Shown here piece after piece: positions 8,738-63,053 of a DNA stretch of 64,000 nt (positions are counted from its first letter, which is position 1; each line of letters opens with the position of its first letter). The position numbers and the translations under genes were made by a program. The stretch is from positions 39,143-103,142 of the forward strand of contig JAHEGU010000006.1 in the NCBI GenBank assembly GCA_024644945.1, given 5' to 3'. Below the pieces are notes generated by a model, which was given only the letters and a program-made list of their open reading frames with translations, searched no databases and was not told where the DNA came from. Source of the DNA: Gammaproteobacteria bacterium. GTDB taxonomy: Bacteria > Pseudomonadota > Gammaproteobacteria > Arenicellales > Poriferihabitantaceae.

Positions 8738-9925
8738 ATGCCGGAGCTGATCAAGCAGCATCTCATTGACCCAGAAATTTGCATTCGCTGTTACACCTGT
8801 GAGGAAACCTGCCCGATAGATGCAATAACCCACGACGACGAAAATGTAGTGGTGGACGCTGACTTATGCAATTACTGCATGGAGTGCATTGCGCCCTGTC
8901 CTACCGGTTCTATCGACAACTGGCGATTGGTCAATTCTCCCTACTCACTAGAACAGCAATTCGAGTGGGAGGAGTTGCCAATGCAGGAGGAACTCGGGGA
9001 GCAAGACAGCGTTTCTTTGAATGAAGCACTGGAACAGGAGATTGCAAGCCTTCTCGAGCAGGCCCACGAAGGAACTGGCGGTAATCCCTCAGCACCTGCT
9101 AGTGCCGCGCAACCAACCATAAATCTTTACAGTCGCGGCAAACCAGCTTTCGCGCAGGTACAGGGCAATTACCGTCTGACTGAAGAACACACGGAAAATG
9201 ATGTGCGCCATATTATCCTGAATTTTGGCGACACTGTATTCCCCGTGCTTGAAGGTCAAAGCATCGGTATTGCACCTCCCGCCGAAGAAGGAGAAAACGC
9301 ACAACTTATTCGGCTTTACTCGATCGCAAGCGCTAGAGACGGCGAAAAGAGGAATGCTAACAATTTTGCCCTGACTGTAAAGCGCGAACCCGATGGTCGC
9401 TGCTCAAACTACTTATGCAATCTACAAAAGGGCGACCAAGTCGAGGTGACCGGACCATTTGGAGGCACCTTTTTAATGCCAAATGATCCCAATGCTAATA
9501 TTATTATGATTTGTACAGGTACGGGATCGGCGCCGTTTCGCGCATTTACCGAACGCAGACGTCGCGCCGCGCCGGGCGCCAGCGGCAAGCTGCTATTGTT
9601 TTTTGGCGCACGCACGCCTGAGGAGCTACCTTACTTCGGCCCTCTCAATAAACTCCCGCACAAACTGATCGAGAAACACCTCGTTTACTCCCGGATTCCC
9701 GGGAAGCCTAAGGAATACGTGCAGGATCGTATGCTGGAACAGTCGGATACTGTTGGAAAATTACTGCAATGTAATCAAACCTATATCTATGTTTGCGGTC
9801 TTAAAGGCATGGAGACTGGCGTCGATAAATCGTTACAAGAAATTTGCCTGCGTCATCACCTGAACTGGGGCGACCTCAAAACCAATATGCGAGCCTCTGG
9901 TCGCTACCATGTCGAAACCTACTGA
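8738..9925 (+). CDS. boxA: BoxA, benzoyl-CoA oxygenase reductase subunit (2x[4Fe-4S] ferredoxin + FNR-like domain)
   Basis: 395 aa. CIRCYTCEETCP and CNYCMECIAPCP ferredoxin motifs, RLYSIAS FAD motif, CTGTGSAPFRAF NAD(P)H motif. Confidence 0.9.
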   Translation: MPELIKQHLIDPEICIRCYTCEETCPIDAITHDDENVVVDADLCNYCMECIAPCPTGSIDNWRLVNSPYSLEQQFEWEELPMQEELGEQDSVSLNEALEQEIASLLEQAHEGTGGNPSAPASAAQPTINLYSRGKPAFAQVQGNYRLTEEHTENDVRHIILNFGDTVFPVLEGQSIGIAPPAEEGENAQLIRLYSIASARDGEKRNANNFALTVKREPDGRCSNYLCNLQKGDQVEVTGPFGGTFLMPNDPNANIIMICTGTGSAPFRAFTERRRRAAPGASGKLLLFFGARTPEELPYFGPLNKLPHKLIEKHLVYSRIPGKPKEYVQDRMLEQSDTVGKLLQCNQTYIYVCGLKGMETGVDKSLQEICLRHHLNWGDLKTNMRASGRYHVETY

Positions 9926-10442
9926 CCCAGTCAAATACAGTGGTATACGCTTGCCGAAGGGCTACGCCGATATCGATGTACCCTTTTCGGACCTCGATGA
10001 GCCCTTTGTGCATGCGATTTCAGTGGGTTGGGGCGACTGCGATCCTGCACAAATCGCCTATACCGCGAATATTCCAGCTTGGAGCTTGCGGGGTATTGAA
10101 GCCTGGTACAAAGCCTGTCTCGGCATTGACTGGTACGTGATAAATCTACATTTCGGCATCGGAACACCCTTTGTTTCACTTAATTTTGAGTTTAAATCGC
10201 CTATAACACCGTTGGGGGATCTTCTGATTTCTGTCTATGTGGACAGATTAGGAGGGTCCTCTATCAGTCATTGTGTAGAAGGCCATCAGAACGGGGCGCT
10301 GTGTTTCACAGGGATAACCGTGGCGGCATTCGTAGATGCTTCGACAATGAAACCAATGCCAATACCGCCAAATATGCGGCAAAGCATTCAACATTACGCG
10401 CAGATTCAGAATCGTGAATATACAAGCGGAAAACATTGCTGA
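9909..10442 (+). CDS. hotdog-fold acyl-CoA thioesterase (4HBT/YbgC-like), probable benzoyl-CoA thioesterase
   Basis: 177 aa. The segment GWGDCDPAQIAYTANIP matches the 4HBT-type catalytic Asp region. The ATG overlaps the boxA 3' end by 17 nt. A thioesterase is known in box clusters (Azoarcus). Confidence 0.65.
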   Translation: MSKPTDPVKYSGIRLPKGYADIDVPFSDLDEPFVHAISVGWGDCDPAQIAYTANIPAWSLRGIEAWYKACLGIDWYVINLHFGIGTPFVSLNFEFKSPITPLGDLLISVYVDRLGGSSISHCVEGHQNGALCFTGITVAAFVDASTMKPMPIPPNMRQSIQHYAQIQNREYTSGKHC

Positions 10443-11310
10443 AACTGATCTCGGAAAAGCCCAACAATTTCTATTTCAAGTGGGGAGCCGAGTTAGAGCC
10501 GCTCGAAGTCGAGCCGGTCTTACCCGCAAACAGCTATCACAGGCATGCGGCGTTTCAGAACGTCATCTTGCCCAGGTCGAAACCGGCAAAGGCAATATTT
10601 CAATCCGATTGCTGCGCCAGATTGCGGCTGCAATCCAGACACCTGTGGAGCAACTAGTCCGGCAGGATGGCGACTTAGAAGAAATGTCGATGCTTATAGA
10701 CCGCATTGGCAAACTCGACCGCGCTGAAATGATGGAGCTACTGAACCAGGTAGACCAATGGATGGTCGAACGCAAATCCCAGGACAAGCAGGGCCGCATC
10801 GCTCTTATCGGTCTCAAGGGGGCAGGTAAAAGTACCATTGGCGCTCGTTCAGCACAGCAGCTTAGTATCCCGTTTATCGAGCTTGATAACGAGATCACTC
10901 GCGAGAGCGGACTATCCGTAGAAGAAATTTTTTCGCTTTATGGAGAACAGCGCTATCGAGAGCTGGAATCCGAATGTCTAAAAAAAGTTATTGCCCAGAA
11001 CCAGCGGTTTATCTTAACCGTTGCTGGAGGGATCGTCTCTAACCTCGATACCTATACAGAGCTACTCAGATCCTTTCATACCGTGTGGCTTAGCGCAGCA
11101 CCGGAAGAACATATGGGCCGGGTGATGGCTAACGGCGATCGCAGAGCAGTGGAAGGCAATCCTGATGCAATGGATAATTTGAAAGCTTTACTCGCAACCC
11201 GCCAGTCATTGTACAAGCGAGCACAATTTCAGTTAGAAACCAGCAATAAAGGCATCAGCGAATGCGGTGAAGAGTTAACAAAGTTGATTCAGCCTTTAAT
11301 TCGATCCTAA
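10414..11310 (+). CDS. boxR: BoxR/BzdR-type regulator (XRE HTH + shikimate-kinase-like domain)
   Basis: 298 aa. N-terminal HTH (LTRKQLSQACGVSERHLAQVETGKGN) and a C-terminal P-loop GLKGAGKSTIG with a shikimate-kinase-like fold. The GTG start overlaps the thioesterase 3' end. Confidence 0.75.
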   Translation: MNIQAENIAETDLGKAQQFLFQVGSRVRAARSRAGLTRKQLSQACGVSERHLAQVETGKGNISIRLLRQIAAAIQTPVEQLVRQDGDLEEMSMLIDRIGKLDRAEMMELLNQVDQWMVERKSQDKQGRIALIGLKGAGKSTIGARSAQQLSIPFIELDNEITRESGLSVEEIFSLYGEQRYRELESECLKKVIAQNQRFILTVAGGIVSNLDTYTELLRSFHTVWLSAAPEEHMGRVMANGDRRAVEGNPDAMDNLKALLATRQSLYKRAQFQLETSNKGISECGEELTKLIQPLIRS

Positions 11311-55814: not shown

Positions 55815-57422
55815 GTGCAAGACGTGCAACAAGACAAAAAACGGTCTAACGCTCTAAGGCCTATCAATGCCGAAATCGTGGACGGAGAGAACAACCCCGT
55901 CTTTTATGATTTTGCCTATTCGGTTAAAGGAGATGCTTTGCCAGGCAGCATTGATCAAATTAAACAGGCGCACGGACAAAACGTCCGCCTGCTGCCACTT
56001 TCAGGCGCATCTGGTGGTGGAGGAATATTCCAGATTTCAAGCCCTGCAAACGGACCTATTGTGGGTCTGCAAATCACGCCCACCAGTCAACCGAATATTG
56101 AGCTTGGAGAAGTTTCCGATCTCACCACCCTGGCGCTGGATCAGATCATCATTGACCAAGAGCGTGAACGAATCTATGCCGGGGCTGCGATCACACTGGA
56201 TCAACTGAGCCAAGCACTGGCTGACCGACTTGGGGAACAATATAGAATATTGGGAGCAGACCTGACCAGCTATACCTATGCACAAGTCGGCGCCACTTTT
56301 ATGACTGGCGGCATGGGACCGCAACGACGCTATTTCAGTGACAGCGTCACCAGTATATCGTTACACAACGGCGATCAAATTGAGTTGATATCTGGCGATA
56401 GGCTTTACGACTATGCGGGCACATATGGCTGGACAGGCCTGGTGACCGCGGTGTGCTGTCGCTACTATACTTTGCCAATGCACGAGATAGCTTTCGCTGT
56501 TCCGGTCAGCAATACCCCAGACCACCTGGCCCGTCTGCTTGCCTCCTTTTCCGCGCATGCCTACCTTAAATTCGACAACAGCCGAGTGGTCACAGTTAAT
56601 AACGAAACAGATCTGATTACCGGTCTTGAACATGTTACCGCCCTATCCATGGAACCGATGTTTCAAAGAGATGGCGATAACCCCGTCACTCGCCGTGCTG
56701 CTGGACTTAAACAGAAATGTCTTGACGCCGGCGCAGACGGGCTGCTTTTCGTAAGCGGATACAGCGACCGTTCCACTGATGAATTCCTTTTGCGGCTAAT
56801 CGACGATCCAGAGTCGAAAGAGCTCACCATTGCTGGCACCAGCCTTGAATACACTGAAGTGTTCAGCGATCCAGATCTGATGCGCGCACTCAGAGAAGCC
56901 ATTCCCTTCGCCGCCCGTACCCAGGAGCCCGAAGGGCAATTCGTATACAAAGGTCACACTGACGCCACTATTCGTCTGCACCCGGACCGGGTTGCTTCGG
57001 CCATGTCCTCACTATGGCAGGCGAATCAAGATTACGTTAATAGTGTTGAAGCAATTTTCGATGACAATAGCGAAGTAGAAGGACAAATTCTGATTTACGG
57101 CCACCTGAACCCATACGGCGTCGATCCACACAATCGACTTACCATGGCATGTAATGATGAAGCAGTATTTAAAAATGCAGTGTCCTTTCTGCACGAAAAG
57201 CGTGCGCATTTTTACCAAGCACTGAGCGCCTTATGTGATGACACCGGATCACTATTCATCGGCGGCGAAAAAGGCGCGGGCTCGGAACAGGAAATTCTGC
57301 CAGCACTCGGTGGCCCTGAAAATGCGCCCACTGCACTAGCGGATAAATTCAATCGACAGTCTGCAGTGATCCGTACCGCCTCACCAATGTTTAACTGGAG
57401 AGCTTTGGCCCCTTATCACTAG
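55815..57422 (+). CDS. divergent FAD-linked oxidase (PCMH/FAD_binding_4-like N-domain)
   Basis: 535 aa, GTG start. LPLSGASGGGG, AQVGATFMTGGMGPQRRYFSDSV..ISLHNGDQIELISGD...YDYAGTYGWTGLVTAV fits the FAD-binding PCMH fold. The C-terminal half is unrecognised. Confidence 0.6.
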   Translation: MQDVQQDKKRSNALRPINAEIVDGENNPVFYDFAYSVKGDALPGSIDQIKQAHGQNVRLLPLSGASGGGGIFQISSPANGPIVGLQITPTSQPNIELGEVSDLTTLALDQIIIDQERERIYAGAAITLDQLSQALADRLGEQYRILGADLTSYTYAQVGATFMTGGMGPQRRYFSDSVTSISLHNGDQIELISGDRLYDYAGTYGWTGLVTAVCCRYYTLPMHEIAFAVPVSNTPDHLARLLASFSAHAYLKFDNSRVVTVNNETDLITGLEHVTALSMEPMFQRDGDNPVTRRAAGLKQKCLDAGADGLLFVSGYSDRSTDEFLLRLIDDPESKELTIAGTSLEYTEVFSDPDLMRALREAIPFAARTQEPEGQFVYKGHTDATIRLHPDRVASAMSSLWQANQDYVNSVEAIFDDNSEVEGQILIYGHLNPYGVDPHNRLTMACNDEAVFKNAVSFLHEKRAHFYQALSALCDDTGSLFIGGEKGAGSEQEILPALGGPENAPTALADKFNRQSAVIRTASPMFNWRALAPYH

Positions 57423-57567
57423 CACTGAATTGACTTACTTCATTATTACTAACGCTGGATGTCAATACTGATGATATTGCGCAGTTAGTTTGTTACTGGC
57501 TCCGATTTGATCACCTTATGATGATCCCTCCAAGAACCAACCAAGCGGAGTTGATTTCATAAATATA

Positions 57568-57604
57568 AACTAATATACTAGTTATTTAGTTATATATAGA
57601 TAAC
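57568..57604 (+). promoter_or_regulatory. two 16-bp imperfect palindromes (AACTAATATACTAGTT, GTTATATATAGATAAC), candidate ArsR-family operators
   Basis: Each palindrome pairs at 7 of 8 positions, with the mismatch at the same position. They lie 4-40 nt upstream of the arsR-like ATG at 57608. Confidence 0.35.
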
Positions 57605-57607
57605 CAC

Positions 57608-57919
57608 ATGCTTGCTATTGAAGAAGCCGCAAACGGATTTGCAGCAGCCGGTTCGGAACCCAGACTTGAAGTGCTGTTGACCTTAGTCCGGGCTGGACCA
57701 GATGGTCTGACTGTTGGCGAAATCATCGAGCGTGTTGGATTACCAGCCTCCACACTTGCTCATCACTTGCGATTCCTTGGTGCCGGAGGCTTGATCGATC
57801 AACATAAACAAGGACGTGTGGTCATCAATCGCGCCAATTACCAAAAAATTGAAGAGCTGGCCGCTTTTCTGCTTCAAGAGTGCTGCGCTGATACTAATTC
57901 GGTGGCCAAATCGGGATGA
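57608..57919 (+). CDS. ArsR/SmtB family transcriptional regulator
   Basis: 103 aa. Winged HTH (LTVGEIIERVGLPASTLAHHLRFLGAGGLI). No alpha3 CxC site, but a vicinal CC pair near the C-terminus (LLQECCAD). Confidence 0.85.
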   Translation: MLAIEEAANGFAAAGSEPRLEVLLTLVRAGPDGLTVGEIIERVGLPASTLAHHLRFLGAGGLIDQHKQGRVVINRANYQKIEELAAFLLQECCADTNSVAKSG

Positions 57920-57950
57920 TTAATGAAACCAATATACTGCACTCATCGCA

Positions 57951-58988
57951 ATGACTGAACTGGTTTTCAAAGGCTTTTCCGGACTGCAGAAAGTTGTAGA
58001 AAAGATAACCTCAGTGTGGACATTGATCTTGTTGATCCCGCTCATTGTGGCGCTGGTCGATGTCACACAGGTGAATCAGATAATTCGGCTGGCGAGTGAA
58101 GCGCTGGTCGGCACACTTCCATTTATTTTAATTGCAGTTCTGTTGGTGGCTTTGCTTAAAGCGAGCAGCGCCGAGTCGCTAGTTGCCAGAGTGTTTGAGG
58201 GGAAGGAAAACAGGATGATCATATTGGCTGCCCTGTTTGGTGGTCTGGCCCCGTTTTGTTCGTGTGAAGTGATTCCATTCATTGCCGGGTTACTGGCTGT
58301 AGGCGCACCGCTCTCGGCAGTAATGGCATTTTGGCTTTCTTCCCCTCTGATTGATCCAGCAGGTCTGATGATTACTGCCGGGGCATTAGGCTGGGAATTC
58401 GCGGTTGGAAAGACAGTCGCGGCAGTCTGTCTAGGGCTCATCGGTGGCTTTGCGATTCGATTTGCCAGCCGACATGGGGTATTCAATCATCCTCTAAAAG
58501 ATCATGGTGTCGACGGCGGGTGTGGCTGTGGTCCCTCTCCTTTTCAGGGCAAACCGTCCTGGCGCGTATGGAAGGACCCAGAGAGATTATCTGTTTTCAG
58601 AGACCAGGCATCCGAAAATGCTGGGTTTTTAATTAAGTGGCTGGCATTTGCATATCTTCTTGAGGCGCTCTTAATCACTTACGTTCCCGCCCAGACCATT
58701 GCCGGAGTTGTCGGTGGAGAAGGGCTGTTTCCAATCATAATTGGGGCATTGGTCGGCGCCCCCGCATATCTCAACAGCTATGCGGCACCGCCACTGGTAG
58801 CCGGACTGATGCAGCAGGGGATGACTGCGGGAGCGGCGATGGCATTTATGGTTGCGGGCGCAGTCAGCTCAATCCCTGCGATGGCTGCGGTTTGGTCGTT
58901 GGTGAGGCTATCTGTGTTTCTTGTATATATCGGATTTGGGATCTTCGGTGCCATTGTCATCGGTTTGTTTTACGAAGTGTTGGTATAA
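57951..58988 (+). CDS. PF03773-type permease (ArsP-like)
   Basis: 345 aa polytopic protein. The APFCSCEVIPF motif matches the conserved CSC-containing segment reported for ArsP organoarsenical efflux permeases. Confidence 0.7.
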   Translation: MTELVFKGFSGLQKVVEKITSVWTLILLIPLIVALVDVTQVNQIIRLASEALVGTLPFILIAVLLVALLKASSAESLVARVFEGKENRMIILAALFGGLAPFCSCEVIPFIAGLLAVGAPLSAVMAFWLSSPLIDPAGLMITAGALGWEFAVGKTVAAVCLGLIGGFAIRFASRHGVFNHPLKDHGVDGGCGCGPSPFQGKPSWRVWKDPERLSVFRDQASENAGFLIKWLAFAYLLEALLITYVPAQTIAGVVGGEGLFPIIIGALVGAPAYLNSYAAPPLVAGLMQQGMTAGAAMAFMVAGAVSSIPAMAAVWSLVRLSVFLVYIGFGIFGAIVIGLFYEVLV

Positions 58989-59031
58989 ATTTAACTCACA
59001 TCAAGGAATCCAGAGATGGATTGATCAAGGA

Positions 59032-61935
59032 TTGAACTTTCCAATCACGTTCAAGGCTCTTTTGACCTCACATACTGATACTGCGAAGTCTGATATTTCT
59101 GCCCAAGATATCAAACCGGAGCTGGAACAAAGCTTGCTCTTTCTTATTGAGGATCTGGCGCATGAAATCAATCCGCGGCGGCAAGTTCGAGCCACAATGC
59201 AATCGTCACTGCAGCGCGATCTTGGTTTCGACAGCCTGGGCTTCTCGGAACTGGTGTTGCGGGCCGAAAAGCAATATAAACTGAGATTGCCGGATGATCT
59301 GCTCAGTCGTTTAGAAACACCCGCTGATCTGGCTGAAGAAATCGAGCGAGCACGTCGATCCACTGACGCTTCATACTCCCAGCAAGCAAAGCATCTACCC
59401 AGATCCACAATCGAAACTCTGCCGGATACTGCTACTACACTCATCGAAGTATTGCAGTGGCACACTCACCACAATCCAGACAGACCACATATTTTATTGT
59501 CAGACGGATACCATGAAAGCGAAAGCATTACTTTTCGCAAACTCGCTGAAACCGCAAGCATTCAGGCTAATGGCATGCGTTCATGGGGACTGGAACCAGG
59601 AGAGTTCGTCGGCATCATGCTGCCGACCGGTCGCGAATTCTTCGAAGCGTTCTTTGGAACGCTTCTTGCGGGTGGCGTGCCTGTGCCGATGTATCCCCCG
59701 GTACGTTTGTCTCAGCTCGAGGAACACCTGCGCAGACAGGCTGGTATTCTGCGCAACTCTGAAGCTGCTTTGTTGTTAGTGCCCGATCAAGGTAAAGCGC
59801 TCACCTCCTTACTGGGGGGACAAATACAGTCCCTGCGCGCGGTTTCAACCGTTGAGGACATGCGCGGAGAGTCGAAGTCGATGCCCCCATTGTTACGCAG
59901 GGCCGAAGATCTCGCTATGTTGCAATACACATCAGGCAGTACCGGCGATCCAAAAGGTGTCATGCTGACCCATGCCAACTTGCTCGCCAACATCCGGGCA
60001 ATGGGCGATGCTATTCAAGCCAAACCCAGTGATGTTTTTGTCAGTTGGCTGCCGCTATATCATGATCTTGGTCTCATAGGTGCCTGGTTCGGCAGTCTTT
60101 ACCATGCGATACCGGTCATAATTATGTCACCCTTGCGTTTCATTGTGCGACCGGAAAGCTGGCTATGGGCGATTCATAGAAATTCGGCCACGCTCTCGGC
60201 CGCCCCTAACTTTGCTTTCGAACTCTGTGCCAACAAAATTGAAGATAGCTCCATTGAAGGACTTGATCTAAGTTCTTTACGGATGATTGCGAACGGTGCT
60301 GAGCCCGTCAGTGCTGAAACTATTCGCAGATTTACCAGACGCTTCGCGCCATACGGATTGAGCGCGAAAGCGATGACCCCGGTATACGGCTTAGCAGAGA
60401 ATTCGGTCGGACTTGCTTTCTCATCTATAAATGACGAACCCGTTGTCGACTTGGTCAGTCGCGACAAGCTCCAACAAAACGAAATTGCCTCTCCGGCAGA
60501 CGCCGCTGAAACACATCCATTGTCTTTCGTTTCATCTGGCATGCCTTTGCGCGGCCATCAGATCCGGATTGTCGATGCACTCGGACGCGAGCTTCCGGAA
60601 CGTCATCAGGGTCGACTTGAATTCAAGGGACCGTCAGCGACCCAGGGCTACTACCGAGATCTGCAAAAGACCAACGCCATTCTTCACGACGGCTGGATAG
60701 ACAGCGGCGACCTCGCTTACATTGCTGAAGGCAATGTCTTCCTCACAGGTCGGATAAAGGACATCATTATAAAAGGCGGTCACAATATATACCCGCAGGA
60801 ACTAGAAGAGGTTGTTGGCAATCTCGCGGGCATCCGTAAAGGCTGCGTAGTGGCATTTGCCAGCGCTGATAGCGACACCGCTTCAGAGCGTTTGATTATC
60901 GTTGCGGAAACACGCAGCACCGACAACGCATCACACGAACAGTTGGAAAAATCCGTGGCACAAACGGTGACGGATATACTAGGCGCCCCGGCCGATCGAG
61001 TCATCATCTCGCCGCCACATACGGTGCCCAAAACATCAAGTGGAAAAATTCGACGTTCAACCACACGCGATCTATACGAAGCCAACAAGCTCGGACAACC
61101 GGTTCGGGCACTTTGGCTGCAGGTTCTGCGTCTTGGCCTGATATCGGCTTGGCCGCGGTTAAGACGACTGACTAAAACACTATCTGATCTGGCCTACGCA
61201 GGTTGGTGGTGGACGGTACTTGTAACTATGGGTGCAGTGACCTGGTTCGCGATTCTGTTACTTCCTAAGCGTCGCCAACGATGGGGGTTTTGCCGAACTG
61301 CGGCTCGAGTTGCATTATGGTTGATGCGCATTCCGGTTACAGTGGCTGGCAAAATACGATTGGAAATTGATACCGCCATCCTTGCCGCAAATCATTCGAG
61401 CTACTTCGATGTTCTGGTACTCACCTCGATCTTGCACGGAGAGCCTGTTTTTGTAGCCAAAAAAGAGCTATCTACGCAGTTTGTTGCCGGCACCTTCTTA
61501 CGCAGGCTCGGGGCGCAATTCGTTGACAGGGCAATAGCAAAAGCCGGACTCGATGAAGTAGAGGCTTTCAAAGACATGGTTAATTCAGGGCAACAGCTAG
61601 TGGTTTTTCCTGAATCGACATTTTTCAGAATGCCGGGACTTCTTCAATTCCGACTTGGTGTATTCGCGATTGCCTGCAGCACAAACACCCGGGTACTACC
61701 TATCGCCATCAGCGGCACCCGATCGATTCTACGCGGCGAACAATGGTTCCCTCGTCACGGGTCGGTAAAAGTTGATGTACTTAAGCCGGTAGCACCAACA
61801 GGAAAGGACTTTGCCGCCACCATTCAACTCCGAGACAGAGTCAGAGAAGACATCCTTTCCTCTTGTGGCGAACCCGATACGTTGGAAACAGAGGTAGTGT
61901 TTTCGGTTAGCCCGAATCGGCAAGTTCGCAGCTAA
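59032..61935 (+). CDS. tri-domain fusion: acyl carrier domain + fatty acyl-AMP ligase (FAAL) + TM segments + PlsC-type (LPLAT) acyltransferase
   Basis: Carrier motif LGFDSLGFSEL. FAAL hallmarks LQYTSGSTGDPKGVMLTHANLLANI and WLPLYHDLGLIG. Hydrophobic WWWTVLVTMGAVTWFAILLL. Acyltransferase motifs ANHSSYFD (HX4D) and VVFPESTF. The ORF is open from 58921 and has no in-frame ATG before the carrier domain. TTG at 59032 or 59062 is plausible. Confidence 0.8.
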   Translation: MNFPITFKALLTSHTDTAKSDISAQDIKPELEQSLLFLIEDLAHEINPRRQVRATMQSSLQRDLGFDSLGFSELVLRAEKQYKLRLPDDLLSRLETPADLAEEIERARRSTDASYSQQAKHLPRSTIETLPDTATTLIEVLQWHTHHNPDRPHILLSDGYHESESITFRKLAETASIQANGMRSWGLEPGEFVGIMLPTGREFFEAFFGTLLAGGVPVPMYPPVRLSQLEEHLRRQAGILRNSEAALLLVPDQGKALTSLLGGQIQSLRAVSTVEDMRGESKSMPPLLRRAEDLAMLQYTSGSTGDPKGVMLTHANLLANIRAMGDAIQAKPSDVFVSWLPLYHDLGLIGAWFGSLYHAIPVIIMSPLRFIVRPESWLWAIHRNSATLSAAPNFAFELCANKIEDSSIEGLDLSSLRMIANGAEPVSAETIRRFTRRFAPYGLSAKAMTPVYGLAENSVGLAFSSINDEPVVDLVSRDKLQQNEIASPADAAETHPLSFVSSGMPLRGHQIRIVDALGRELPERHQGRLEFKGPSATQGYYRDLQKTNAILHDGWIDSGDLAYIAEGNVFLTGRIKDIIIKGGHNIYPQELEEVVGNLAGIRKGCVVAFASADSDTASERLIIVAETRSTDNASHEQLEKSVAQTVTDILGAPADRVIISPPHTVPKTSSGKIRRSTTRDLYEANKLGQPVRALWLQVLRLGLISAWPRLRRLTKTLSDLAYAGWWWTVLVTMGAVTWFAILLLPKRRQRWGFCRTAARVALWLMRIPVTVAGKIRLEIDTAILAANHSSYFDVLVLTSILHGEPVFVAKKELSTQFVAGTFLRRLGAQFVDRAIAKAGLDEVEAFKDMVNSGQQLVVFPESTFFRMPGLLQFRLGVFAIACSTNTRVLPIAISGTRSILRGEQWFPRHGSVKVDVLKPVAPTGKDFAATIQLRDRVREDILSSCGEPDTLETEVVFSVSPNRQVRS

Positions 61936-61943
61936 AACGCGTT

Positions 61944-63053
61944 TCAATTTTTACAGGTAAACAGCGGCTCACCAAGTCGATCTACATCTACTTCTACACC
62001 TAACCCGGGACCGGTGGGTGCTGCACCAACACCATTATCTGACCGTGGCATGTAACCCGCAATATGTTCGTTGGTCCAGTCGTTCATAAATGATACCGTT
62101 AAAACTTGATCTGCCCGGGTGCTGGCCGCGAGATGGCTGACTGCGGCCGTAACCAGGTCACCGCCCCATGAATCTTCAATGGTCACTCGTAATCCAAGCT
62201 TGTCAGCGATATCTCGAACCAGTTTCGATCCTGTGAGGCCCGCAAACTTGGAAATTTTTAAATTTACCGCCTCCATGCCGTCGGCATGAAATGCACGTAG
62301 CATGGTATTAATATCCGTGATGACTTCATCCAGTACCATGGGCAGGCTGGTATGGCGACGCACGTAAAGACACTCCTCCAAAGTCTTGCACGGTTCCTCG
62401 AAAAAGACACGGTGCAACGGTTCCAGTAATCGTGCCGCAATCATCGCATCTTGCAATCGCCACCCACCATTGGCGTCGGCGACAATATAGTCCTCATCGC
62501 CAGTGACCTCCACCACATGGCGAACCCGTTCAGCGTCTTTATAGGGGTTGGCGCCTATCTTCAGCTGAAAGCGATGAATCCCTTCAGCTCTCCTTTCCAG
62601 CACATACTCTTTCATTTCCTCTGGCTCGCCTAGCGGCACCGCCTTGTACAGCGGAAAGTTGTGCTGTAATCGACCACCAAGTAAAGTCGCGACATCCCGT
62701 CCCGTCGCCTTGCCGAGCAGATCCCAACAGGCTACATCCACTGCGCTCTTGGCGTAACTATGGCCTCTAAGCGATCCGTCCAGGGCGATGTGTACCGCGC
62801 TCAGATTTGTCGGATCCACTCCGATCAGTCCGGGTGCCATTTCCTGCAAAGCTGCTCTGGCGCCTTGTCCATGCGATGCTAAATACAAAGGACCCAGCGG
62901 ACAAACCTCCCCCCATCCTTCCAGTCCCTGATCGGTTGAAATTCTAACTACTGTGCTCGGCAAATGGGTGATCACCTGATTGCCAGACATGACATAGTCA
63001 CCATATCGATAACTTAGATCGTATCCATAGACGGTAAGCTGGGTAACTTTCAT
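61944..63053 (-). CDS. enolase-superfamily enzyme (mandelate racemase/muconate lactonizing enzyme family; proline-derivative epimerase/dehydratase-like)
   Basis: 369 aa. FQLKIG, ADANGGW, FFEEP and VLDEV metal/acid-base motifs. Confidence 0.85.
   Translation of the reverse strand: MKVTQLTVYGYDLSYRYGDYVMSGNQVITHLPSTVVRISTDQGLEGWGEVCPLGPLYLASHGQGARAALQEMAPGLIGVDPTNLSAVHIALDGSLRGHSYAKSAVDVACWDLLGKATGRDVATLLGGRLQHNFPLYKAVPLGEPEEMKEYVLERRAEGIHRFQLKIGANPYKDAERVRHVVEVTGDEDYIVADANGGWRLQDAMIAARLLEPLHRVFFEEPCKTLEECLYVRRHTSLPMVLDEVITDINTMLRAFHADGMEAVNLKISKFAGLTGSKLVRDIADKLGLRVTIEDSWGGDLVTAAVSHLAASTRADQVLTVSFMNDWTNEHIAGYMPRSDNGVGAAPTGPGLGVEVDVDRLGEPLFTCKN

Follow-up and report, generated by a model that had tools for sequence, protein, structure and literature searches.

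Acyl carrier, fatty acyl-AMP ligase and PlsC-type acyltransferase domains joined in one bacterial polypeptide, a candidate enzyme of fatty acid salvage

The window analyzed here, a stretch of 64,000 nucleotides from contig JAHEGU010000006.1 of a gammaproteobacterium, carries on its forward strand, at 59062..61935, a gene for a single polypeptide of 957 amino acids that unites, in this order, an acyl carrier domain (ACP), a FAAL (fatty acyl-AMP ligase) domain, two membrane helices and a PlsC-type lysophospholipid acyltransferase (LPLAT); from its sequence, it is predicted to be membrane anchored. We favor, with a probability of roughly 0.55, the reading that this protein is an Aas-like enzyme of fatty acid salvage or lysophospholipid re-acylation that carries its own carrier domain. 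The protein is typical of its family, which has been catalogued but hardly studied, and the interest lies in the family rather than in this particular locus.

In the proposed reaction, the FAAL would adenylate a free long-chain fatty acid with ATP, and the acyl group of the resulting acyl-AMP would be handed, rather than to CoA, to the phosphopantetheine that Ser58 of this very chain carries, because the canonical CoA pocket appears to be blocked. The acyl-ACP would then swing to the PlsC-type domain, which a hydrophobic/amphipathic helix pair would keep at the inner membrane on its cytoplasmic face, and the HX4D dyad would transfer the acyl group to the hydroxyl of a lyso-lipid in the membrane, in all likelihood a lyso-glycerophospholipid. 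Loading in cis, topology, acceptor and physiological role are what we infer here. What is understood of FAALs concerns almost exclusively how they start the assembly of polyketides, lipopeptides and mycolates, and parts of the FAAL surveys raise their role outside these contexts as an open point. If the proposal is true, nature would have solved the task of Aas a second time with a different structure, by which free fatty acids re-enter membrane lipids while bypassing CoA and the shared ACP pool, with a bearing on membrane repair, the use of exogenous fatty acids and the escape from inhibitors of fatty acid synthesis.

Domain architecture and conserved residues

Pfam was run on the open reading frame (ORF) in its full extent (58921..61935, + strand; 1,004 residues counted from the first TTG) and placed PP-binding at 96-140 (E 6e-7, above the cutoff), AMP-binding at 179-578 (E 8e-68), AMP-binding_C_2 at 620-712 (below the cutoff) and the acyltransferase family PF01553 at 813-931 (E 7e-23). 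The carrier, ligase and acyltransferase matches all pass the Pfam cutoffs and bear out the order of carrier, FAAL and LPLAT given in a preliminary description of the locus, and the strings quoted there (GFDSL, LQYTSGSTGDPKGVMLTHANLL, YHDLGLIG, NHSSYFD and FPESTF) are all found in the protein. With the domains in order and every quoted string present, the architecture is real, well beyond chance. The database protein P0001 (957 amino acids) is 100% identical to the gene product, and its numbering is used for all residues below. Conservation was assessed in a close set of 67 homologues and in a broad set of 75 sequences from many phyla (74 relatives and the query; median identity, 45%), and an AlphaFold2 (AF2) model was built from a 67-sequence alignment (mean pLDDT, 81; pTM, 0.67).

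The carrier domain (residues 14-99; 59101..59358, + strand) is delimited by Pfam PP-binding, the NCBIfam ACP models, the AF2 model and conservation. The PF00550 match reaches 30.1 bits (cutoff, 20.8), and NCBIfam ACP models match with E values of 2e-8 to 3e-4. The phosphopantetheine attachment site is Ser58 in the motif DLGFDSL (codon 59233-59235), of which G55, D57, S58 and L59 are invariant in the close set. AF2 predicts helices at 14-36, 58-72, 80-83 and 87-99, the second of which is opened by Ser58; sequence and model together thus present what is expected of an acyl carrier domain of PF00550, i.e., a four-helix bundle with the serine of DSL at the start of helix II.

The ligase domain (residues 127-673; 59440..61080, + strand), delimited by Pfam, NCBIfam, matches in the Protein Data Bank (PDB) and Foldseek, consists of an N-terminal adenylation body and a C-terminal subdomain with the A10 lysine, K662. 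The A3 motif QYTSGSTGDPKG and K662 within PKTSSGKIRR are invariant in the close set, and T290, S291, G292 and K662 are retained in 73 to 75 of the 75 sequences of the broad set. The best NCBIfam model for this part of the protein is a FAAL (PRK09192, "fatty acyl-AMP ligase"). The top 18 sequence matches in the PDB (E 1e-89 to 1e-41) are mostly named FAALs, e.g., EcFAAL (3pbk, 5e-89), the olefin-synthase FAAL (7r7e-g), the L. pneumophila FAAL (3kxw) and FadD32, FadD23 and FadD28; they also include McyG and the adenylation domain of a keto-acid nonribosomal peptide synthetase (NRPS), and none of them is named a CoA ligase except the FAAL-type FadD32 and FadD28. PDB entries named CoA ligase or synthetase follow at E 1e-37 or weaker. 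Foldseek superimposed the AF2 model on EcFAAL with template modeling (TM) scores of 0.91-0.92 and a root mean square deviation of about 3 Å, the TM scores for EcFAAL and the olefin-synthase FAAL domain together being 0.87-0.92.

Two further sets of features separate FAALs from CoA ligases. The FAAL-specific insertion corresponds to residues ~460-492 (60439..60537, + strand), as judged from the EcFAAL alignment, the AF2 model and its retention in 70 of 74 family members. The alignment with EcFAAL runs through this region with single-residue gaps only, and the matches to CoA ligases are mostly split in two, the best stretch ending at ~423-450 or beginning at ~478-512. The insertion had been left to structural modeling in the preliminary description, and AF2 predicts a strand-helix-strand there. 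A neighboring FadD11-like ligase was compared by BLASTP as a CoA-ligase control for the insertion, and the alignment was too poor to be used. The experimentally defined elements by which EcFAAL rejects CoA are, according to a passage in Patil et al. (2021, PMC8460268), the bulky W224, M231 and F279, the helix T252-R258 and the prolines P107 and P226. Transferred through the 3pbk alignment, they map to W329 (60046), L336 (60067) and F384 (60211) as blockers of the CoA pocket, to P213 (59698) and P331 (60052) as prolines of the alternative pocket and to residues 357-363 (60130..60150, + strand) as the counterpart of the FAAL-specific helix, for which AF2 predicts a helix at 357-362. These elements are conserved across the family: in the broad set, W329 and F384 are each present in 73 sequences and P331 in 75, and 73 have methionine or leucine at position 336, which is methionine in most relatives. 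The earlier assignment of the ligase as a FAAL is hence upheld by the sequence, the predicted fold and the published CoA rejection residues, and the protein appears to combine the ANL core motifs with the insertion, a blocked canonical pocket, the FAAL helix and a proline-lined pocket.

The acyltransferase domain (residues 759-935; 61336..61866, + strand) is identified by PF01553 (E 7e-23), by the match to Thermotoga maritima PlsC (5kym, E 3e-14), in which the HX4D and FPEGT motifs are aligned, and by NCBIfam. All four motifs expected of a PlsC-like LPLAT can be recognized in the sequence and are conserved among the relatives, namely, motif I NHSSYFD (H778 and D783; 61390-61410), motif II FVDR (R823), motif III FPEST (61606-61620) and motif IV VLPIAISGT. 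Among the NCBIfam models, the generic acylglycerolphosphate acyltransferase (AGPAT) model AGP_acyltrn is best (79 bits; cutoff, 103), followed by OlsA (50 bits; cutoff, 300) and the Aas-type model (49 bits; cutoff, 1,349); since all these scores are under the curated equivalog cutoffs, acceptor specificity cannot be transferred from PlsC or OlsA. The acceptor is lysophosphatidic acid for PlsC, lyso-ornithine lipid for OlsA and 2-acyl-GPE for Aas.

Between ligase and acyltransferase lies the membrane-association element (residues 684-754; 61111..61323, + strand), which is recognized by hydropathy, the AF2 helices and conserved hydrophobicity. AF2 predicts a 50-residue helix (684-733), whose last 22 residues belong to a Trp-rich, strongly hydrophobic segment (712-734) with a hydropathy maximum (Kyte-Doolittle value) of 1.86; this leads through a basic turn (KRRQR) into an amphipathic helix (737-754) that is basic as well. 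The hydrophobic segment is conserved, with a median value of 1.78 in 74 sequences. Of the "two hydrophobic helices" described at the outset, one strongly hydrophobic segment thus stands, whereas the second helix is amphipathic and basic. The two helices ahead of the LPLAT core resemble the membrane-association region at the N terminus of PlsC. A monotopic anchor that leaves ligase and LPLAT on the same side is suggested by this analogy, by the basic residues at both ends of the segment and by the need for ATP-dependent loading and acyl transfer to share one side of the membrane.

The catalytic residues of the ACP, FAAL and LPLAT modules are retained together, in 70 to 75 of the 75 sequences of the broad set (Ser58 in 70, K662 in 73, His778 in 73, Asp783 in 74, Arg823 in 74 and Glu851 in 73). 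Because these residues and the hydrophobic segment are jointly conserved, the three modules seem to evolve as one functional unit. We argue that they also work as one, on the grounds of the co-conserved residues, the lack of a conserved partner gene and the finding that stand-alone LPLAT relatives are frameshift fragments (see below).

Start codon, family and genomic neighborhood

The frame 58921-61935, which had been taken as the gene, exists, but the N termini of homologues and three related loci place the true start further downstream, most likely at TTG 59062, from which the frame runs for 957 codons to the stop TAA at 61933-61935. As described before, no ATG stands in frame upstream of the carrier domain (the first, at 59197, lies past ACP helix I), and TTG 59032 and TTG 59062 are the candidates. 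Gene callers differ: an NCBI protein in the same 90% cluster, "AMP-binding protein [Arenicellales bacterium]", has 967 amino acids, a length that fits a start at TTG 59032, and other sources give 957. Homologous proteins have their first residue about 20 positions ahead of conserved helix I, which corresponds to TTG 59062, and P0002 and P0003 begin with MNS where the protein of the window has MTS; the database call for P0005 is 24 residues short and placed at an internal TTG. On the DNA level, the window was aligned with three loci whose proteins are 74-75% identical (L084, L088 and L089). The alignment is free of gaps from an intergenic block to the start, and the start column reads TTG, TTG, TTG and GTG, i.e., the start is a non-ATG codon in four of the four loci looked at. 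In L084, an in-frame TGA 12 nucleotides (nt) upstream of its TTG rules out a longer N terminus there. The gene call therefore draws on the ORF, the identical P0001, the N termini of homologues, the start column and the stop in L084. The frame does stay open back into the 3' end of the preceding arsP gene, as was first observed, which is incidental.

The fusion is common. A pattern scan of one genome per species of the Genome Taxonomy Database gave at least 600 stretches, of which at least 599 encode a relative, and the fusion thus occurs in at least 599 bacterial species; 80 stretches that cover most or all of the protein were kept and underlie the locus counts given below. They come from Alpha-, Beta-, Gamma- and Deltaproteobacteria, Acidobacteriota, Actinomycetota, Nitrospira/Nitrospiria, Methylomirabilota, Entotheonella and Sulfurimonadaceae. 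Genomes of isolates with the fusion include those of Methylocystis parvus, Mesorhizobium delmotii, Zobellella maritima, Marinobacter salicampi and a Cupriavidus strain. More than 120 full-length database clusters were found; the best 120 are 50-100% identical to the query and, except for one, 916-982 amino acids long, and PF00550, PF00501 and PF01553 are jointly recorded in 114 of them, the other six lacking the PP-binding record only. A phmmer search with the linker and helix region against 1.84 billion representatives returned 79 matches, mostly fragments, a number that is unusable as a family size because one helical segment does not suffice as a query.

Naturally split versions, with the LPLAT and the ACP-FAAL parts in separate proteins, were looked for, and the matches on long contigs (P0121 and P0141) turned out to be copies of the fusion broken by frameshifts. 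Seemingly stand-alone LPLAT and ACP-FAAL genes at L090 2998-5864 and L091 3186-5921 are likewise the frameshifted fusion gene and are for this reason not to be counted as split variants; one of the contigs bearing a frameshift is labeled with ~2x coverage. The LPLAT-only relatives obtained in a search with the C-terminal domain are fragments of the fusion at contig ends or frameshifts.

The architecture is not unusual, as the at least 599 related stretches, the more than 120 clusters and its mention in passages of two surveys show. One survey treats FAAL-like domains fused with lysophospholipid acyltransferases, in the passage concerned, as a recruitment independent of polyketide synthases (PKS) and NRPS (Patil et al. 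2021, PMC8460268), and a passage of the other describes a FAAL clade with many members that stand alone or with an "LPAT_AGPAT_like" domain (FAALPred 2026, PMC12820801). These survey passages contain no biochemistry of the FAAL-LPLAT fusions and mention for them neither an N-terminal carrier nor membrane helices. New in comparison with these parts of the surveys are therefore the N-terminal carrier, the membrane helices, the conservation of catalytic residues, the phylum spread and the absence of conserved neighbors. The preliminary description had itself allowed that the architecture might be common and already characterized; common it is, but a functional study was not found in the literature covered.

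Flanking ORFs of the 80 loci were clustered, and the immediate upstream and downstream neighbors were scanned against Pfam. No conserved partner gene emerged, no family being present in more than about 10% of these loci, which fits the "self-contained" enzyme that had been envisaged. A gene for a phosphopantetheinyl transferase does not recur among the immediate neighbors. The only neighbor that recurs across distant lineages is an ATG22-like transporter of the major facilitator superfamily (MFS), with 7 of 80 loci (~9%) and three further distinct loci (L085/L086, L090 and L091). The genes concerned (L085 7849-9171, L005 5917-7236 and those in L021, L022, L027, L045, L072, L082, L090 and L091) adjoin the fusion gene or lie within a few kilobases of it, and four transporters that were compared are 27-61% identical to each other; in L085, the MFS and fusion genes overlap by 8 nt. 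The 64-kb window holds no ATG22-like MFS gene. A FadD11-like acyl-CoA ligase (AMP-binding plus AMP-binding_C_3) is encoded directly upstream of the fusion, e.g., at L085 3094-4860 and L087 2983-4875, and accounts for 4 of 61 upstream neighbors, which puts CoA-dependent and CoA-independent activators side by side in several loci. Occasional neighbors are alpha/beta hydrolases, one patatin phospholipase, an ABCD-type ATP-binding cassette (ABC) transporter and a BT1-type MFS protein. Directly downstream of the fusion gene, L036 encodes at 9027-10874 an ABC transporter with an ABC_membrane_2/SbmA-BacA-type domain (Pfam) and L060 a related ABC-type ORF at 8878-11160. ABC_membrane_2 is the ABCD type, which is tied to the transport of long-chain fatty acids in other systems.

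In the window itself, the fusion gene follows on the same strand an arsR-type gene (57608-57919) and a gene for an ArsP_1 permease (57951-58988), whose stop codon is 73 nt from the fusion start. The spacer (58989..59061, + strand) contains a conserved block, AAAyTTAAyTsACATCAAr ... GGAwyGrTmAAGGAT, which keeps a constant spacing to the TTG or GTG start downstream of it and aligns without gaps in the four loci (window, 58989-59061; L084, 4856-4928; L089, 1335-1407; L088, 3926-4000) and exceeds the gene's first 20 codons in conservation. L088 has 62 nt inserted between arsP and the block; since the block stays with the fusion gene despite this insertion, it belongs to that gene, for which it may serve as promoter or operator. 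In L089 and L088, it contains TTGACA. It occurs once in the window and does not recur upstream of arsR, where an AT-rich palindromic region (57540-57607) with the promoter-like site TTGATT-17-TATACT differs from it. The spacer has no consensus fold that would indicate an RNA element (alifold, -1.4 kcal/mol) and no Rfam match, and the 73-nt gap contains no terminator or promoter consensus, the counts in a scan of 57300-62300 being at the level of shuffled sequence; cotranscription with arsP is consequently possible.

Several observations concern the neighboring genes themselves. In the ArsR/SmtB-type regulator, the helix-turn-helix region is free of cysteine and thus lacks a CVC-type site, and a vicinal cysteine pair (QECCAD) is found in the C-terminal part. 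The ArsP_1 permease contains the motifs PFCSCE and GGCGCG, and its best NCBIfam matches, the Cu/Zn efflux model SO_0444 and SaoE, are both below the cutoff. Upstream of arsR, an ORF of 535 amino acids (55815-57422, + strand) with a weak FAD_binding_4 match below the Pfam cutoff is syntenic in P0002 and P0003. On the other side, the fusion gene and a convergent gene for an MR/MLE-family enolase (61944-63053, - strand) end 8 nt apart, which leaves no room for separate terminators.

Alternative readings and their weight

In favor of salvage and re-acylation, we also count that lipid-related neighbors (ATG22-like MFS proteins, FadD11-like ligases, hydrolases and patatin) recur at low frequency. 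Several points weigh against it. The carrier stands N terminal to the ligase, which is the reverse of the usual FAAL-ACP order. The LPLAT scores much alike, and below every curated cutoff, with PlsC, Aas-type and OlsA models, which do not single out one acceptor. The MFS neighbors were examined as LplT candidates and match neither the LplT nor the LplT-Aas models of NCBIfam. If residues 712-734 formed a true bilayer span, ligase and LPLAT would come to lie on opposite sides of the membrane, and the analogy with the PlsC N terminus and the basic residues at the ends of the segment are the two arguments for the monotopic view. Finally, no characterized member of the family was found in the full-text literature, the coverage of which excludes most subscription journals.

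The chemistry from FAAL to ACP in cis and on to LPLAT might be the same with an acceptor other than a lysophospholipid, which we regard as a possible but distinctly less probable reading. Candidate acceptors could be a lyso-aminolipid (OlsA-like O-acylation), glycerol-3-phosphate or lysophosphatidic acid in a de novo synthesis that uses scavenged fatty acid, a glycolipid or the substrate of an ElbD-like specialized lipid pathway without the reductase step. OlsA models (E 2e-13 and 5e-13) match the LPLAT as well as the Aas-type model (2e-13) does, the AGPAT model being best, and ElbD of Myxococcus xanthus unites acyl-CoA synthetase (ACS)-type, ACP and AGPAT-like domains and has reductase-less homologues in other phyla (PMC9131029). 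The protein itself lacks a reductase domain by Pfam, though, and none of olsB, elb-type or glycosyltransferase genes recurs beside the gene in the 80 loci. Moreover, the family spans many phyla, a spread that is presumably wider than that of any single specialized lipid. That the fusion is a loading module for a natural-product pathway (lipopeptide, polyketide or aryl-polyene-like), whose product the LPLAT would attach to a lipid anchor, is very unlikely. FAALs are best known as starters for PKS and NRPS, FAAL-ACP didomains are common there (PMC11837247), and one NRPS/PKS model is among the NCBIfam matches of the ligase, but no PKS, NRPS, ketosynthase or condensation gene is present in the window or among the immediate neighbors in the 80 loci, and the passages of both surveys single out the LPLAT fusion as PKS/NRPS independent (PMC8460268, PMC12820801).

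Two other readings start from this particular locus. The gene could be cotranscribed with arsR and arsP under the control of ArsR, either as a link between metalloid or metal stress and lipid remodeling or with the ArsP_1-type permease as the lipid or fatty acid transporter of the enzyme. The genes lie on the same strand 73 nt apart without a terminator-like site between them, the order ArsR-ArsP_1-fusion is kept in five related metagenomic loci, and other permeases (MFS, BT1 and ABCD-type ABC) sometimes adjoin the gene elsewhere. This order is confined, however, to these five loci (the window, P0002, P0003, P0004 and P0005), whose proteins are 74-100% identical, and neither ArsP nor ArsR is found by Pfam among the immediate neighbors in any of the 80 more distant loci. 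Within the five-locus clade, the downstream MR_MLE and YDMC genes are syntenic in all and those for a glutathione S-transferase and an acyl-CoA dehydrogenase in four of five; with synteny on the other side too, shared ancestry suffices to explain the adjacency. In addition, the spacer block travels with the ligase gene past the 62-nt insertion and is absent upstream of arsR. The metalloid stress-lipid connection floated in the preliminary description is thus unsupported, and ArsR control as a whole is very improbable. Only marginally less doubtful is the most novel conjecture, in which ACP-FAAL-LPLAT would be a widespread Lands-cycle enzyme that needs neither CoA nor free ACP and is supplied with lyso-lipid or fatty acid by a permease encoded next to it, as Aas is by LplT; different lineages would have recruited an ATG22-like MFS, BT1-MFS or ABCD-type ABC transporter for this purpose, and the ArsP_1 permease of the window's clade would be a lipid transporter instead of a metalloid exporter. 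Least credible of all is that the carrier domain is not made and that translation starts at the internal methionine, ATG 59197, which would yield a FAAL-LPLAT protein using the free ACP of the cell. There are only TTG candidates upstream of the carrier domain, and its PP-binding score is modest (30 bits); yet ACP helix I, which is encoded upstream of ATG 59197, is kept as protein in the 67 homologues, the DSL serine is invariant among these and widely present in distant members (70 of 75), the TTG/GTG start is conserved as an alignment column in four loci, and AF2 predicts a complete four-helix ACP.

Comparison with known systems

The nearest functional parallel is Aas of Escherichia coli (2-acyl-GPE acyltransferase/acyl-ACP synthetase), in which a single chain likewise joins an ANL-type fatty acid activator to a PF01553 acyltransferase and which works in two steps, from free fatty acid to acyl-ACP and from there to the acylation of lysophospholipid (PMC11416262). 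Aas-type NCBIfam models match both halves of the fusion protein, and the MFS transporter beside some fusion genes parallels lplT beside aas. The order of domains is reversed, however, the acyltransferase being N terminal and the ligase C terminal in Aas according to the NCBIfam model positions, and Aas, which lacks a carrier domain, depends on free holo-ACP, whereas the fusion carries its own ACP and a FAAL-type ligase; the opposite order and the missing carrier had been pointed out correctly at the outset, as the model positions and PMC11416262 show. Aas is also a peripheral protein without a predicted transmembrane helix (PMC11416262), unlike the fusion with its hydrophobic helix pair. Assignment to Aas proper was therefore rejected, given the order ACP, ligase and acyltransferase and a score of 28 bits for PRK08043 against an equivalog cutoff of 886 (the Aas acyltransferase occupies model positions 16-141). 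The same applies to LplT-Aas (PRK06814 and PRK08633), since an MFS domain is missing and the scores are 160-167 bits against cutoffs of 1,221-1,349.

Stand-alone and didomain FAALs (EcFAAL 3PBK, L. pneumophila 3KXW, FadD32 and olefin-synthase 7R7E) share the fold, the insertion and the pocket-blocking residues, and by analogy with what is described for FAALs in PMC8460268 in the passage concerned, hand-over to a phosphopantetheinyl carrier rather than to CoA is expected for the fusion as well. These FAALs feed PKS, NRPS or mycolate condensation, a fused carrier follows the ligase, and an LPLAT is absent, whereas the fusion has its carrier ahead of the ligase and includes the acceptor enzyme in the chain. 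The FAAL-LPLAT fusions in the passages of PMC8460268 and PMC12820801 belong to the same architecture class.

ElbD of M. xanthus, a characterized enzyme of ether lipid biosynthesis with FAR-like (fatty acyl reductase-like), ACS, ACP and AGPAT-like domains and with reductase-less ElbD-like counterparts outside the myxobacteria (PMC9131029), resembles the fusion, as far as a comparison by description goes, in that one protein combines an ACP with a domain for acyl activation and an acyltransferase of the AGPAT-like kind. It differs by its N-terminal FAR-like reductase, its elb operon and its solubility when purified; the fusion has no reductase and no elb neighbors, and its carrier lies ahead of the ligase. 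An ElbD-type assignment was accordingly discarded, with no reductase or NAD-binding match in Pfam and no elbB or elbE neighbors in the window or in the 80 loci. PlsC and OlsA, finally, stand alone and draw on the cell's pool of acyl-ACP or acyl-CoA, whereas the fusion protein would charge a carrier of its own.

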